64,000 nucleotides of DNA from Candidatus Woesearchaeota archaeon (GTDB lineage: Archaea; Nanobdellota; Nanobdellia; Woesearchaeales; UBA583): NCBI GenBank assembly GCA_965205335.1, contig OZ242164.1, positions 1,056,001 to 1,120,000 of the forward strand, given 5' to 3'. The number at the start of each line of letters is the position of its first letter. Position 1 is the stretch's first letter. The position numbers and the translations under genes are program-made. Below the pieces are notes generated by a model. It did no database searches. It was not told the DNA's origin and saw nothing but the letters and a program-made list of their open reading frames with translations. Below are positions 42,367 to 48,655 of the stretch, in pieces.

Positions 42367-43364
42367 TTTCTAATATATGTAATTTGAGGTGATATTTTTG
42401 GGTATCTCTTATTTGGCCTTGATGCTCTTGTCAGAGTGATTAGTCTTTTTTTAGGACCTTGAATACTTCCCTTAACTAAGAGATATTCATTTTTAATTAT
42501 GCCGTATGCTCTAAACCCTCCTGTTCTGTTGATTTCTTCCGGATTGTTCGATACTTTTAGTATCCATTTGTTCCATTCAGTTCTGCGATGGAAACCATGC
42601 TGACCCGGTAATGGGATTGTTGTCAGAACTCTTGACGGGGTCCATGCTCCAACGTTTCCTGCATGTCTTCTTGTTTTTTCTGATTTGTGTGATGTTAGTT
42701 TTACACCAAATCTTTTAACTGCACCTGAAAATCCCTTGCCTGTTGTTATTGCATGAGTGTCAACTGATGTTCCTGCGGATAGAACCTCTGATGCTTTTAT
42801 TTCAGCACCTAATTTGGATAATGCAAATGTAATTTGCTCTGATAAATCTCCGCTAATTGCAAGTTCTAAGACTTCTGGCTTCTTTTTACCGATGGTTGTC
42901 AGGCTCGGGGTTGTTACAATTTTAACTCTTAATTCTTTTATGTCATTTTCTTCAGCAAATTTAATTAATTCATCAGATGATGGAATTTTTGAGTCTTTTT
43001 TGTATAAGTCTAATTTTCTTGCTAAGTTTTTGTCTTTTAAGTTTGTGGATATTTCTTTTTTTATTTGCAGGTTTCCATAGTCATCAAGTCCTAATAGTTT
43101 GATGCTTAGAATTTTAACTGGAGGGGCTTCAAGTATTGTAACTCCTAAATCAATCTCAGTTCCTTTTGTTAAGGTATGTGAAAAATTATCTATTACTCCA
43201 ATATTTGTCATGCCAACTTTGTACGCTGGAAATCCTAAGAAATTAGTCTCTTTTGGGAGAGATTTAACTGATTCCCAACTATTTATTACTGCTGTATGCT
43301 TTTTAGCCCTAACTCTAGGCCAGTAAGCCTTACTGCCTCTTTTTCTTGTACTTCTGCTTGCCAT
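42363..43364 (-). CDS. rpl3p: 50S ribosomal protein L3 (uL3)
   Basis: PR.RA, YKVGMT, GKGF.G.VKRFG, PGQ.GFH.RTE.NK. Confidence 0.97.
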   Translation of the reverse strand: MASRSTRKRGSKAYWPRVRAKKHTAVINSWESVKSLPKETNFLGFPAYKVGMTNIGVIDNFSHTLTKGTEIDLGVTILEAPPVKILSIKLLGLDDYGNLQIKKEISTNLKDKNLARKLDLYKKDSKIPSSDELIKFAEENDIKELRVKIVTTPSLTTIGKKKPEVLELAISGDLSEQITFALSKLGAEIKASEVLSAGTSVDTHAITTGKGFSGAVKRFGVKLTSHKSEKTRRHAGNVGAWTPSRVLTTIPLPGQHGFHRRTEWNKWILKVSNNPEEINRTGGFRAYGIIKNEYLLVKGSIQGPKKRLITLTRASRPNKRYPKISPQITYIRK

Positions 43365-43509
43365 TCTTTAAACGCAATTGCCTGCACAGGTTACATTTGC
43401 TGTATTGCCTTCACAGGATTACTTTTAACTCTAAATTATATTTAAAAGAGTACTGTAATAAGAAAAAGTAATTTAGTTTGGTTTTTAAAGGTTGGGGTAA
43501 TTCGAGTGT

Positions 43510-43956
43510 TTAGTTAAGGTTGGTGTCATATTGTAATTGTTTGTTTTCAATGTTTTTTAGTCTGTGTAGTATGTCTTTGTTTTCTGATATGAATTTTCTC
43601 ATTTCTACAAATGCATTTATTATCTGAATGCTTATTTTGATTGCGGTTTTGCTGTGAAGTGCTGCTGAGAGCATTGAGACACCCTGTTCTGTGAAAGCGT
43701 AAGGCAGGTATTTCCTATATTTTCCTTTCCCTTTTTCTAAGGTTGCAATTTGTGACCTTAAAGAATCATACTCTTCTTGAGTTAGTTGAAACATAAATTC
43801 TTTAGGAAACCTCTCACTGTTTCTTTTGACTTGTTGATTTAATCTTTTTACTTCTACTTGGTAAAATTCAGCTAAATCAGAATCAAGCATGACTTGAACT
43901 CCTCTAATAATATGAATTTTATTTTCTATGTTTTTAATTAAGACAGTTTTTTCCAT
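43510..43956 (-). CDS. ORF6N-domain DNA-binding protein (possibly C-terminally truncated)
   Basis: IRG.QVMLDSDLA..Y, VKRN.ERFP..FMFQL, PYAFTEQGV.MLS. Confidence 0.9.
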   Translation of the reverse strand: MEKTVLIKNIENKIHIIRGVQVMLDSDLAEFYQVEVKRLNQQVKRNSERFPKEFMFQLTQEEYDSLRSQIATLEKGKGKYRKYLPYAFTEQGVSMLSAALHSKTAIKISIQIINAFVEMRKFISENKDILHRLKNIENKQLQYDTNLN

Positions 43957-44044
43957 TCTGTTTTTATATCTCTACTCTTATTATTACTTATAAGATTTTT
44001 TAGAGAGTTTTTCAAAATTATTAAGAATTTGAATAATAACTCGG

Positions 44045-45667
44045 TTAAATTTGATTCATCAGGTTTAGGACTTTTTCTTTGTTTTCTATTATGAAAGTGC
44101 TTAGTTTTGGACCTTTGTCTTTGCCAATTATTAGTCTGTACATTATTTTAAAGAAATGAATTGTATCAAGGTTATGGGTTGTTGCGATTTCTCTAAATTT
44201 AGACATCATTTCATTTGAATCGTCAGTTATTTCAAGTTCTTTTTTGAGTCTTGTTATTGCATCTTTTTCATTTTTTTTGAGATTGTTTATGTAGTCCTCT
44301 GGAACAATTTGATGAATTTTAAATTTCATTTCGTCTGGAGCGTAATCCCAAAGCCAGTTTTTAGCACATTGGGTTCTTTGTTCTAATCTTATGTTGTCAA
44401 ATTGAGTTTTTAGTTCATCTTTAAAGTGTTCTTTGATTTTATCAATATTAAAGTCATTTGCCTGAGCAACTGTTGTTAGATGTCTAAAACTTGGCTGGAA
44501 TGGACATTCTTTCTGGATTTTATCACCATTAATCGCTGAAAGTTCATAAACTCTTTTTAGTGTGGCAAGTTTTTTTTGGTTTTTTTCTTTCTCTAATCCG
44601 TAATATATTCTTTCAAGTTTGTCAAAGTCTTCGTAGATTTTTATTACGTCCAAGTCAAATGAGATGTCAAATTCAGAGTTTGGTCTTGAACCTGCAAATA
44701 AGTATAAGACCATTTGAGGAGTGTAGACCTCCAAGACATCGCAAACTCTAAGAGCGTTTCCTTTTGAGGATGATATTTTTCCTCCCTGTCCTTTGATTCT
44801 GACAAAGTCATACATTGTATATACTGGTGGTTCACGTTCAAAGATTTGTCTGATTATTTCACAGCCTGTTGTGTATGAACTGCCAGCAGTTGAATGGTCT
44901 TTTCCCCCCGGTTCAAAGTTTACTTTGTAATAGTCCCACCTCATAGGCCAGTCTGCTTTCCATCTTAGTTTTACTCTTGGGTTTTGTTTGAAGTTGATTT
45001 CTTTTTCTGTGCCTTTTTCGTTTGTGTAGGTTAAGGTGTATTCTCCGTCATATGAGATGATTTTGTTTGTGTCTTTTTTTGTTTCGTTGTCGTATATATC
45101 TATGGGCATCCAAGTGTTAGGCCGGGATTCATCTCTGTATTTGTTTAATGCATCAATTACTTTGTGTTTGTTATTTAGGACTTTTTTTATTGAGTTCGCA
45201 TATATTCCGCTTCGCTGGAGTTCATATTGGTTCTGAAAGCCAATCGGGAAGTTGAATACTGAGATTTCGTTTTCAAATGTTTTCATGAATTCTTCTGCAT
45301 AAGAACCTTCGCCAAATGGGTTTGGAACTTCTCCGTCCGGCATTCTAAGGTATTTTTCCCATTCTTCTGGAACATCACTTGGAACTTTTCTGAATGCATC
45401 GTATGAATCCCAAGAGTAGATGAATTTGACTTTTTCCCCTTTGTCAATAAGAGCACGTCTTACCATTTCAGTTGTGATTAGTTCTCGGAAGTTTCCAATG
45501 TGAATGTATCCGCTTGGAGTAATTCCCGAATATACTACATATTCTTTTTCATTGGGAAATTTATCTATTGTTCTTTGAGCTGAATTATCCGCCCAGTACA
45601 CGTTTTCAAATGATATTCCTTTTTTCATTTGATTTTGGTTCTTGTGATTCTTTTCTTTGCTTCTCAT
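44045..45667 (-). CDS. lysS: class I lysyl-tRNA synthetase (own starts at 45667 or 45628)
   Basis: WAD, SGITPSG..HIGNFRE, WKADWPMRW, FEPGGKDH, KISSSKG, GPKL..FI. Confidence 0.95.
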   Translation of the reverse strand: MRSKEKNHKNQNQMKKGISFENVYWADNSAQRTIDKFPNEKEYVVYSGITPSGYIHIGNFRELITTEMVRRALIDKGEKVKFIYSWDSYDAFRKVPSDVPEEWEKYLRMPDGEVPNPFGEGSYAEEFMKTFENEISVFNFPIGFQNQYELQRSGIYANSIKKVLNNKHKVIDALNKYRDESRPNTWMPIDIYDNETKKDTNKIISYDGEYTLTYTNEKGTEKEINFKQNPRVKLRWKADWPMRWDYYKVNFEPGGKDHSTAGSSYTTGCEIIRQIFEREPPVYTMYDFVRIKGQGGKISSSKGNALRVCDVLEVYTPQMVLYLFAGSRPNSEFDISFDLDVIKIYEDFDKLERIYYGLEKEKNQKKLATLKRVYELSAINGDKIQKECPFQPSFRHLTTVAQANDFNIDKIKEHFKDELKTQFDNIRLEQRTQCAKNWLWDYAPDEMKFKIHQIVPEDYINNLKKNEKDAITRLKKELEITDDSNEMMSKFREIATTHNLDTIHFFKIMYRLIIGKDKGPKLSTFIIENKEKVLNLMNQI

Positions 45668-46684
45668 TTTATTTCTTGGTTTTGTAATGTTTAAATATTC
45701 TTCTGCTATTTGTTTTAAATATTTATCTAATTTATGTATAAATTCATCTTCATCATTCAAGTGTGTAATTACTGTTTTTGATGGTATATGTAAACTCTTA
45801 TTAGGAAAATTATCTTTTAATGATAAGTTGTTAATTTCATTCACAATTTCATTTAAATTTTTTTGGTCTTTTATATCCTCTTTAATAAATCTCTTAATAT
45901 TTTCAATTATATTTTCGTATTGAAAAGGACTTGAGTCTAATTTTCTGAATATATTTTCTTTCTTTTGTTTGAAAATATTTTCGCTTTTATTAATTTTATA
46001 TAAATCAAACATATCTCTTGGTTTAAATTGCTCTCTTGTAATTGTTGCTCTTATTTTTTCTAATATTATCTCGTCTATTGAATATGCATTTAAAATAGGT
46101 TTCACTAAATTATAATTTGTAAGTGCTAATTCTGTTTTATCTAATGAATAATAATCAATAATATTTTTTATTTCAAGTTTATTCGGTTTATTTATTAAAT
46201 CTTCAAAAAATGATATTTCAATTTTGATAGGTGATTCAAGGTTAGAATAAATTGATTTATAATATAAGTTAAGAATGTATAATTTTCTGGAATTTATATC
46301 TCTGATGTATTTTTCATTTGTCCTGTCTTCTTCAAATTCTAATTTGGACATATCAGCTATTTTTTTGATTTCGCTAATAATCGGAATAACTCTCTTTTTA
46401 ATCTCTCTTTCTCTTCTATTTTTTGTTTGTGTTTCTCTTATTTTATTAGCGTCCTGATGAGTAAAATCCAAGTCCTCACTAATTCTATGGTATTTAAGAT
46501 AATTCTTGGTTAGTAATGTTCCTCCTTTAAATATCAACTTGTCTAAGTTCGGTGTTTCTTGCTTCGCCCAGTTCGATAAGAACAACGAGAGAACATAATC
46601 TTTTTCTAAAAAATCTTCTGAAATAGGAGCATGTATCTCTTTTTTTAGTTTATCAACATACAATCTAAGTTCCTTATTATTCAT
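44045..46684 (-). CDS. single ORF: AbiEii-family nucleotidyltransferase toxin fused in frame to class I lysyl-tRNA synthetase
   Basis: N-terminal EKDY, FKGGT.L, R.SEDLDF, KIEIS, EI..EK.RA, PRD.FDL; no stop before the LysRS region. Confidence 0.85.
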   Translation of the reverse strand: MNNKELRLYVDKLKKEIHAPISEDFLEKDYVLSLFLSNWAKQETPNLDKLIFKGGTLLTKNYLKYHRISEDLDFTHQDANKIRETQTKNRREREIKKRVIPIISEIKKIADMSKLEFEEDRTNEKYIRDINSRKLYILNLYYKSIYSNLESPIKIEISFFEDLINKPNKLEIKNIIDYYSLDKTELALTNYNLVKPILNAYSIDEIILEKIRATITREQFKPRDMFDLYKINKSENIFKQKKENIFRKLDSSPFQYENIIENIKRFIKEDIKDQKNLNEIVNEINNLSLKDNFPNKSLHIPSKTVITHLNDEDEFIHKLDKYLKQIAEEYLNITKPRNKMRSKEKNHKNQNQMKKGISFENVYWADNSAQRTIDKFPNEKEYVVYSGITPSGYIHIGNFRELITTEMVRRALIDKGEKVKFIYSWDSYDAFRKVPSDVPEEWEKYLRMPDGEVPNPFGEGSYAEEFMKTFENEISVFNFPIGFQNQYELQRSGIYANSIKKVLNNKHKVIDALNKYRDESRPNTWMPIDIYDNETKKDTNKIISYDGEYTLTYTNEKGTEKEINFKQNPRVKLRWKADWPMRWDYYKVNFEPGGKDHSTAGSSYTTGCEIIRQIFEREPPVYTMYDFVRIKGQGGKISSSKGNALRVCDVLEVYTPQMVLYLFAGSRPNSEFDISFDLDVIKIYEDFDKLERIYYGLEKEKNQKKLATLKRVYELSAINGDKIQKECPFQPSFRHLTTVAQANDFNIDKIKEHFKDELKTQFDNIRLEQRTQCAKNWLWDYAPDEMKFKIHQIVPEDYINNLKKNEKDAITRLKKELEITDDSNEMMSKFREIATTHNLDTIHFFKIMYRLIIGKDKGPKLSTFIIENKEKVLNLMNQI
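45665..45725 (-). repeat. 61-bp direct repeat, copy 1 (contains TATA-like box and lysS ATG)
   Basis: 58/61 identical to 47407-47467. Confidence 0.93.
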
Positions 46685-47315
46685 CTTTATATAACCCTTC
46701 TTTTACTTTCTTCTGAAATGTCTTTGGATAATCACTTAATATAGAAATTACTTTTGATTTGTCAATTGCTTTTTCTAATTCTATTGGTACTCTTTTTTTG
46801 AAATAAATAAAATCTAAATATATTTTCTCATTTAAACCGATATTCTGGGTTATTCTGTTTTTTGTTTTGTTTTGTTTGTAATTATCTTGTTTGTAATTGT
46901 TTATGTGCTGAGGTTTTGTTTTTTTGAAGTCAAATTTAGTTCTTATTATTGTTTTTTCTCCTGAGATTTTATTGTTGATAATGTTTATTTTCTTGTGAGC
47001 CTGCCATAATATGTTATTTAATTCTAAGCCTTTTTCAAGTGAAATATACCATTTTACATTTGATTTATTTAGAACACTAAACACTAACTCAGATGGATTG
47101 TATCTCAGTTGATTAAGTCTTCTTTCGTTATCCGATAGTATATAGTAATAGTTTTGGATTATAAATTTAATTTTTCTATTTTCTCTTAGTTTCTTTAGGT
47201 ATTTTTCAGGTTCGTCTTGCACTACATCACGAATTAGTTCAATTAATAATTTTTTTGAAACAATCTTTTCCTCCAAATTATCCAATTTAAAGTACAATAT
47301 GTATATTTCTTTCAT
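46677..47315 (-). CDS. AbiEi-family (type IV TA) antitoxin/regulator
   Basis: N-terminal wHTH-like region, WYISLEKGL, EK.YLD.IY; overlaps AbiEii start by 8 nt. Confidence 0.8.
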   Translation of the reverse strand: MKEIYILYFKLDNLEEKIVSKKLLIELIRDVVQDEPEKYLKKLRENRKIKFIIQNYYYILSDNERRLNQLRYNPSELVFSVLNKSNVKWYISLEKGLELNNILWQAHKKINIINNKISGEKTIIRTKFDFKKTKPQHINNYKQDNYKQNKTKNRITQNIGLNEKIYLDFIYFKKRVPIELEKAIDKSKVISILSDYPKTFQKKVKEGLYKDE

Positions 47316-47365
47316 TTTTATTAAATTTTATTTGGAAGCGTTTATTTATAAATATATTGCTCAGT

Positions 47366-47388
47366 ATTATTGATTTTTTATCAATAAT
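47366..47388. promoter_or_regulatory. inverted repeat upstream of abiEi, candidate autoregulatory operator
   Basis: ATTATTGAT-N5-ATCAATAAT next to TTTATAAA (47345-47352). Confidence 0.5.
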
Positions 47389-47406
47389 CAGAAATAATTT
47401 TTATAG

Positions 47407-47467
47407 CATTTTATTTCTTGATTCTGTAACGTTTAAATATTCTTCTGCTATTTGTTTTAAATATTTA
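47407..47467 (-). repeat. 61-bp direct repeat, copy 2
   Basis: Matches 45665-45725; its ATG is followed by CTA TAA. Confidence 0.93.
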
Positions 47468-47525
47468 ACTCCTATATAATCCTTATTTTACTTTGTTTTG
47501 AAATATCCTTTCGTAATTATCTAAC

Positions 47526-47705
47526 TTAACTTTTATATCCAAATTTTTTGTTATATGTCTTATGATCAACTATTGCAAGAATAAATGCAATTATCTCTAC
47601 CTCATTTCCTTTTATTGTATAAAGCAGTCTCCAAAAATTTGAAAGTTCAACTCTGTATAGATTTTCATATTGTGAATATTCCTTTGAAATACATTCTATT
47701 TTCAT
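47526..47705 (-). pseudogene. C-terminal half of a RelE-like toxin
   Basis: ISKEYSQYENLYRVELSNFWRLLYTIKGNEVEIIAFILAIVDHKTYNKKFGY*, same pattern as 30629-30974. Confidence 0.7.
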
Positions 47706-48226
47706 TATCCTTTCCTACAACGTATATTTTATTTGCTTTCGCTCTATGTAAAATAACTCTATTAAGACTTTCACCTTCATCTGTGTCCCCTGCAAGTGTA
47801 ATTTCATCGTCATCAGCTTCTAATCTAACTTCACTATACTCAACATCATTAGTTCCTTCATACTATATTCTGTTTGGGATTCCTTCAAACTTTCCTGATA
47901 TTGACTATAAATCTTAGAAATTTCAGACGTTCTATAAAGTGTAAATCTATTTTATTTATATATATTACCAAATCTTCTAGTAATTTTAAATGAATAAGAA
48001 ACACTTTCTCTAATAAACAAAGCCTTAAAATTAATGAGAAATATTTAATTAAGTAGCCGATATGTTACAAGTTAGAAAGACAGTTGAATTTTTTACAAAA
48101 CAAAGTTGAAGAGATTTTATGATTTTTATTCCAAAATCTTTTTAAAGGGGTTTTTGTTTCTTTTTAATAACTAAAGTTTAATATTTTAGTGGGATAAAGG
48201 TTGTTAATGCAATTTTATACCTAAAA

Positions 48227-48655
48227 ATGGCAAGAATGCATGCAAGAAGGAAAGGAAAATCAGGCTCAACAAGACCTGTACAGGTTGATTTGTCAAATAT
48301 GACAGTTAAACCGAAAGAGATTGAATCCATTGTCTTAAAGCTTGCTAAAGATGATGTGAAACCAAGTAAGATTGGGATAGTTCTGAGGGATACTTATGCA
48401 GTTCCCAATGTTAAAGCCGCAACGAAGAAATCAATTTCTCAGATTTTAAATGATGGCGGAATGGGATTGCAAGTTCCCGAAGATTTGAGTGCTTTGATTC
48501 AGAAGGCTCAGAGATTAAATAAGCATTTGGAAAATAACAGCAGAGATACTCATAACCGAAGAGGACTTGCTTTAGTTGAAGCAAAAATCAGAAGGCTTGC
48601 TAAGTATTATGTTAGAACTTCAAAACTTCCAAAGGGGTGGAAATACAAGAATTAA
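48227..48655 (+). CDS. rps15p: 30S ribosomal protein S15 (uS15)
   Basis: MARMHARRKGKSGS.RP, IG..LRD.Y, PEDL, KIRRL.KYY. Confidence 0.97.
   Translation: MARMHARRKGKSGSTRPVQVDLSNMTVKPKEIESIVLKLAKDDVKPSKIGIVLRDTYAVPNVKAATKKSISQILNDGGMGLQVPEDLSALIQKAQRLNKHLENNSRDTHNRRGLALVEAKIRRLAKYYVRTSKLPKGWKYKN

Follow-up and report, generated by a model that had tools for sequence, protein, structure and literature searches.

We analysed a 64,000-nucleotide stretch of DNA from a Candidatus Woesearchaeota archaeon (contig OZ242164.1, positions 1,056,001 to 1,120,000; hereafter the window, in the coordinates of which all positions are given), in which the gene for an AbiEii-type toxin runs in frame into lysS, the gene for a class I lysyl-tRNA synthetase (LysRS). 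The fused open reading frame (ORF) lies on the reverse strand at 44045..46684, starts with an ATG and comprises 879 codons in one uninterrupted frame, as seen in the ORF list and in a translation that contains no stop codon. Residues 1 to 339 (45668..46684, reverse strand) correspond to a full-length AbiEii toxin whose own stop codon is absent, as indicated by Pfam, PADLOC and alignment, and the remaining 540 residues (44045..45667, reverse strand), which begin at the internal ATG at 45667 encoding M340 of the fused ORF, constitute lysS proper. Both domains score above curated cut-offs. The AbiEii family PF08843 is matched at residues 47–262 (E 1.6e-21, 77.7 bits against a cut-off of 22.5) and the PADLOC AbiEii model PDLC02321 at residues 22–293 (E 7.9e-35), this being one of 13 PADLOC AbiEii models that the toxin part matches, while tRNA-synt_1f is found at residues 363–718 (E 6.3e-110) and TIGR00467 (lysS_arch) at residues 363–865 (462.3 bits against 147.55, covering model positions 2–499 of 515). 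The LysRS part is thus a complete TIGR00467 equivalog, and an initial annotation made from the DNA letters alone, which had described an intact 879-codon ORF joining AbiEii to a complete class I LysRS, agrees with the ORF list and with all three family collections. The genome, a single 1.2-Mb contig that is 95% complete, has one AbiEii and one class I LysRS locus above cut-off, while matches to class II LysRS models stay below theirs (the best reaches 92.4 bits against 427.6), so that lysS at this locus is its only LysRS. The abiE module is AT-richer than lysS, with G+C fractions of 0.21–0.28 and 0.29–0.38, respectively.

It can be seen from the alignment of nine toxin sequences that the toxin part has kept every column that is invariant in the set, namely F52 K53 G54 G55 T56, S69 E70 D71 L72 D73 F74, E209 K210 R212 A213 and R223 D224 D227; the motifs FKGGT, SEDLDF, EK.RA and RD..D picked out in the initial annotation are all present and fall in these columns. 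In an end-to-end alignment with seven stand-alone toxins of 312–323 residues, none of the latter extends past the position of M340. Since the stand-alone toxins end by this point and the conserved blocks are kept, we conclude that the toxin part is complete and that nothing lies between toxin and LysRS. All 101 toxin relatives found at E ≤ 1e-40 are 195–323 residues long, and the stand-alone family is characterised by some 305–323 residues followed by a stop codon of its own, a feature missing here as the ORF continues for 540 codons. The fused toxin has insertions of 6 and 13 residues within residues 276–313 (approximately 45760–45860, reverse strand), including NFPNKSLHIPSKT; both insertions in this C-terminal region are missing from all seven stand-alone relatives. 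The closest toxin relative, P0272 (79% identical, 220 residues), is encoded on a 60.5-kb contig of another close relative and is a truncated AbiEii, ending after …TREQ just ahead of the RD.FDL block.

Upstream of the toxin, and overlapping its start by 8 nucleotides, is a candidate gene for a 212-residue AbiEi antitoxin/repressor (46677..47315, reverse strand), as had already been noted in the initial annotation. Its product matches PADLOC AbiEi models (E 5.5e-8, 2.9e-6 and 0.0017), whereas at a threshold of E ≤ 0.01 it could be placed in no family of Pfam or NCBIfam. The congener G013 encodes a stand-alone pair whose antitoxin shares 69% identity with this product along its entire length. Stand-alone AbiEi and AbiEii pairs are encoded by both G013 and a second congener, G005 (toxins of 323 and 314 residues, respectively), at loci unrelated to lysS, which in G005 is on a different contig. 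The putative abiE promoter region, read from the sequence at 47345..47388 (reverse strand), consists of a palindrome, ATTATTGA-N7-TCAATAAT (47388–47366), and a TTTATAAA box (47352–47345); the G013 abiEi gene is preceded by the same palindrome (with N6) and the same TTTATAAA box. AbiEi-type antitoxins repress their own promoters, according to PMC7450476, and the palindrome would probably act as the operator.

The abiE module is bracketed by a direct repeat, D1, of 71 nucleotides (90% identity, spacing 1742 nucleotides), which was identified in a repeat search and has two significant copies in the genome and no more; such bracketing is a feature of a repeat-flanked insert (att-like or Campbell-type integration). 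Copy A (45665..45735, reverse strand) is the fusion joint: it carries the toxin tail …KYLKQIAEEYLNITKPRNK ending on the ATG at 45667, and encodes …KYLKQIAEEYLNITKPRNKM (…RNKM), after which the reading continues as RSKEKNH… of LysRS. Copy B (47407–47477) together with its stop codon (47401..47477, reverse strand, within the stop-to-stop frame 47401..47487) is a relic toxin tail, …KYLKQIAEEYLNVTESRNKML, that keeps the toxin's own end, …RNKML followed by a TAA at 47403–47401, and is separated by a spacer of 85 nucleotides (47400–47316) from the ATG of abiEi. Because the G013 and G005 toxin tails can be aligned with the repeat core, we consider this core to be toxin-coding in origin. Toxin and lysS are joined precisely at an ATG, which is at once the toxin's second-to-last sense codon and the native start of lysS. 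As this ATG is in frame for both genes, the toxin is left without its final codon and stop, and its frame runs on into lysS. The stand-alone modules in G013 and G005 are flanked by no repeat beyond chance-like AT-rich matches, and a general cassette that carries toxin-tail repeats is accordingly unsupported. There are no tRNA genes and no Rfam families in 43000–48400, so that the insertion site of the module was not a tRNA gene.

That lysS natively starts at the ATG at 45667 is evident from the 90% identity cluster of the fused protein, which has three members and in which the 879-residue form is found on the contig of this genome only. The second member, P0153 (540 residues), starts MESKEKNHKNQNQTKREIS… and aligns gaplessly, at 93% identity, with residues 340–879 of the fused ORF. 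The third, P0271 (379 residues, 87% identical), has the same start as M340 and diverges from about residue 362 onwards to end at 379; this loss of similarity suggests a frameshift or an assembly error at that point of P0271. Since both proteins start at M340 and both have a threonine at position 353, we conclude that M340 is the native start, and M353 is discarded as a candidate. The suggestion, made before these relatives were compared, that the internal ATG might supply plain LysRS is strengthened by these two starts. An annotation that lists an 879-residue 'LysRS' here would therefore describe two genes' worth of protein, with the functional start most likely at M340.

The combination of toxin and synthetase was then sought among relatives. 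A match to the LysRS was present in 19 of 40 related genomes searched, in open frames of 317–729 residues, the frames of 721–729 residues carrying a C-terminal tRNA-binding domain and no toxin. AbiEii adjoined LysRS in none of these 19 genomes. Using the toxin half in tblastn searches of 116 loci, toxin and LysRS were found together at the genome's own 4 loci and at none of 99 other lysS loci, a set that did not include 77 further lysS loci. A phmmer search with the whole ORF against 1.84 billion representatives returned 2469 matches, and among the best 150 of these no protein matched both halves; at least 140 residues preceded LysRS in five of the 150, comprising B3_4 (two), Aldedh (two) or no Pfam family (one), and six other long or multi-stretch proteins of the 150 had tRNA_bind, Metallophos or no additional domain. 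Among proteins of 483–1539 residues the toxin part found a single match, which is AbiEii-only, and when residues 315–620 were used (537 matches) PF08843 was present in none of the 120 LysRS proteins listed. LysRS relatives at 58–71% identity are Woesearchaeota or Nanoarchaeia records, and scans of metagenomes and of species genomes yielded no relative above 57% and 71%, respectively. Seven of 19 congeners have no match to this class I LysRS, including G007 (a single contig of 1.5 Mb, 94% complete).

By these sequence comparisons the fusion is not conserved, as the architecture is found in no independent lineage among the relatives compared. The initial annotation had staked its reading on some relative retaining the fusion, and the genome, locus and protein searches all came back without the architecture. 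In the literature on AbiEii/DUF1814 with tRNA synthetases, judged by titles and the beginnings of abstracts, no AbiEii–aminoacyl-tRNA synthetase fusion was found to be described, though supplements could list such an ORF; papers on AbiE in DPANN archaea are defence surveys. The AbiEii–LysRS architecture is new, although it has been found only once and can be accounted for by recombination at a shared ATG.

Three sequencing runs of one sample contain the stretch. From two of them (X1 and X2), which may also be the source data of the genome assembly, a contig of 1840 nucleotides corresponds to 43879–45718 and one of 1765 nucleotides to 45696–47460, with 0 differences and 0 gaps. Since these contigs show no differences, no stop codon or indel has been missed at the joint, which was the check that the initial annotation had asked for. 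The contigs, built with k=31, break at a 37-nucleotide node (45689–45725) that is the identical core of the repeat, is present twice and has approximately double the depth of its neighbours (8.5 against 4.8 and 3.8 in X1; 7.1 against 3.3 and 3.4 in X2); the two copies of the repeat rule out that this double-depth contig is a strain variant. Because the contigs break at the repeat core, they confirm the letters, and the linkage between the body of the toxin and lysS is not established by the contigs alone.

A contig from another sample and study (X4) represents a close strain. It matches 43509–45685 with 111 differences (approximately 95% identity), skips 45686–47185, which is the body of toxin and antitoxin of some 1.5 kb, and has 106 other letters in its place, then rejoins at 47186–47254 and 47375–47416 (the abiEi 5′ region and the upstream spacer), after which it differs. 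That the match stops at 45685 may have a technical cause, as the comparison skips repeated letters. With 45686–47185 lacking, it follows that the close strain has lysS without the body of the toxin. The abiEi-like pieces that are kept rule out a clean empty site, and judging from these matches the X4 locus resembles either a derivative that arose by deletion or a module that is older and has decayed.

Regarding the surroundings, lysS sits between defence or mobile-type genes, within a ribosomal-protein neighbourhood. Just downstream of it is an ORF6N-domain gene (43510–43956, reverse strand; E 2.8e-35) that also matches the PADLOC defence candidate PDC-S05 (E 6.4e-63). Two stretches inside this gene (43610–43656 and 43874–43908) are represented in X1 and X2 by short contigs at approximately doubled depth, on either side of a 277-nucleotide contig; this pattern points to a further copy of the segment, or to a strain variant of it, in the sample. 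On the other side, between the abiE module and rps15, a stop-to-stop frame at 47526–47714 (reverse strand) ending …LYRVELSNFWRLLYTIKGNEVEIIAFILAIVDHKTYNKKFGYKS has a weak ParE_like match (E 0.001; 19.4 bits, below the cut-off of 24.4), and together with 47665–47862 (reverse strand) in another frame it may represent the remains of a second toxin gene.

We conclude that the fusion is probably a young, lineage-specific by-product of recombination and not a selected two-domain enzyme, and that the free LysRS is probably the working form. A recombination joint at the shared ATG has removed the last codon and the stop of the toxin, and in this explanation the working LysRS would be the free protein of 540 residues translated from the ATG at 45667. 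The lysS mRNA would most likely be leaderless, starting from a TATA-like box, TATTTAAA, inside the last codons of the toxin (45690..45697, reverse strand; read from the sequence), 22 nucleotides before the ATG. This spacing is that expected of a leaderless archaeal mRNA, and the box is a candidate promoter. The 879-residue chimera would arise only where translation of the abiE transcript, which AbiEi autorepresses, continues across the joint, presumably as a minor, low-level product that AbiEi keeps in check as it does an ordinary AbiEii. As a B3_4 domain is found N-terminal to class I LysRS in P0005 and P0114, such a chimera need not be lethal. Even as an accident, the locus would illustrate how a mobile toxin–antitoxin module can arrive at an essential gene and become fused to it by recombination at a shared ATG, and the locus of the close strain, without the toxin, appears as if the module had been shed again (a gain here or a loss there).

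Several points weigh against this explanation. The TATA-like box is weak as a promoter call, as such strings abound in DNA of approximately 25% G+C. There is no spacer and no run of five or more T residues in the last 540 nucleotides before the ATG at 45667 (two T6 runs occur earlier in the toxin gene, at 46613–46608 and 46210–46205), and abiE transcripts should therefore run into lysS. No RNA run containing the stretch was among the sequencing runs found. The intactness of both toxin and antitoxin, with every invariant residue kept, fits a recent arrival and would also fit selection. Finally, because the X4 contig keeps abiEi 5′ pieces beside lysS, the joint may predate the split of the strains and lysS may need the abiE promoter; the ancestral state may be the one without the module (a gain in this genome) or the one with it (a deletion in the X4 strain).

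In a second explanation, promoter capture, the rearrangement would have removed the native promoter of lysS; the abiE promoter would now drive this sole lysS, and its product would be the chimera, a protein initiated internally at M340, or both. In that case the module could not be lost without a compensating event, as lysS would be driven from its promoter. The absence of a spacer and of T5+ runs, the retention of the 47186–47254 and 47375–47416 matches beside lysS in X4 and the conservation of the abiE promoter elements with G013 all accord with this. However, a toxin–antitoxin promoter that is autorepressed, as such promoters are according to PMC7450476, would be an odd choice for a housekeeping synthetase, the TATA-like box 22 nucleotides before the ATG may offer lysS a promoter of its own, and the X4 contig carries 106 and 116 unmatched letters. 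We regard this capture of lysS as unlikely.

An improbable but far-reaching outcome is that the chimera is made and is important, either as a tRNA-Lys-specific arrest switch or because a toxin–antitoxin module has captured the sole LysRS as one transcriptional and translational unit. The locus would then be a natural experiment in which a toxin of the same family as the mycobacterial MenT toxins, which block tRNA charging, is covalently tied to a tRNA-charging enzyme, in a 1.2-Mb genome without a spare LysRS, and the flanking 71-nucleotide repeats would permit an excision that restores unfused lysS. The form of this idea put forward in the initial annotation was that of a functional tethered toxin, whereby the LysRS domain would bring the AbiEii nucleotidyltransferase to tRNA-Lys and so provide an arrest switch or a domesticated tRNA-end-modifying activity. 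The open frame and the confirmed joint sequence are in keeping with it, as are the intact antitoxin and the retention of all invariant toxin residues, and class I LysRS relatives carry other appended domains that are tRNA-related. In addition, MenT-type DUF1814 toxins extend the tRNA 3′-CCA and block charging, as stated in PMC7450476. However, the assignment of tRNA as the target of this AbiEii clade would follow from likeness to MenT, the fusion is a singleton that is kept by no relative at any distance searched, the closest strains live with plain LysRS, and recombination at the shared ATG explains the joint without selection. The proposal is thus left without comparative support, and we consider it decidedly unlikely.

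It is very improbable that the joint is an assembly mis-join at the repeat, the chromosome then carrying the relic tail and unfused lysS and a 1742-bp unit (spacer, abiEi and abiEii with its …NKML stop) being a separate circle or being excised in a fraction of the population, since although the k=31 contigs break at the 37-nucleotide core of about double depth and the contig graph fits both solutions, a 37-nucleotide repeat is far below normal read length, the deposited genome is a single contig, the depth of the module is approximately that of the chromosome, a 1.7-kb circle without a replication gene at one copy per chromosome is implausible, and the X4 contig links abiEi-like pieces to lysS.

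The fusion, a probable by-product of recombination, can be compared with known systems. The locus resembles the AbiE type IV toxin–antitoxin (abortive infection) systems of Lactococcus and Streptococcus agalactiae in being an operon of two genes, of which that for the antitoxin comes first and overlaps the start of the toxin, in the matches of the toxin to PF08843 and the 13 PADLOC AbiEii models and of the antitoxin to PADLOC AbiEi, and in having an upstream palindrome and promoter box, as expected of an operon that is autorepressed in the manner outlined in PMC7450476. It differs in its archaeal host, in the lack of a Pfam match for the antitoxin, and in a toxin frame that, for want of a stop codon, runs on into lysS.

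The toxin also belongs to the same DUF1814/AbiEii superfamily as the MenAT systems (MenT1–4) of Mycobacterium tuberculosis. Single-sequence searches of the PDB with the toxin and with the antitoxin gave no significant solved relative, and a profile of the toxin clade reached the solved chains 6y56, 4o8s and 4ok0 at E 5e-5 to 9e-5, via the KGGT/SEDLDF and RD.FDL blocks. These chains we take to be MenT- and JHP933-type proteins. MenT3 extends the tRNA 3′-CCA and blocks aminoacylation, as described in PMC7450476. Unlike the toxin of the fused ORF, MenT toxins are stand-alone; they are also very distant from it in sequence, and an action on tRNA by the present clade would be by analogy.

Finally, the fusion can be set beside class I LysRS enzymes with appended domains, since its LysRS half, a full TIGR00467 equivalog, has relatives that also carry extra domains. 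A C-terminal tRNA_bind domain (PF01588) is found on the LysRS of G014 (locus L013, 1459–3624), G005, G019, P0003, P0082 and P0165–P0173; many LysRS proteins of this clade have it and so reach 685–735 residues. B3_4 is found at the N- or C-terminus of LysRS in P0005, P0114, P0014 and P0017. These appended domains are tRNA-handling and recur in many lineages, whereas the addition of AbiEii is found in one genome and comprises a complete toxin gene together with its antitoxin.

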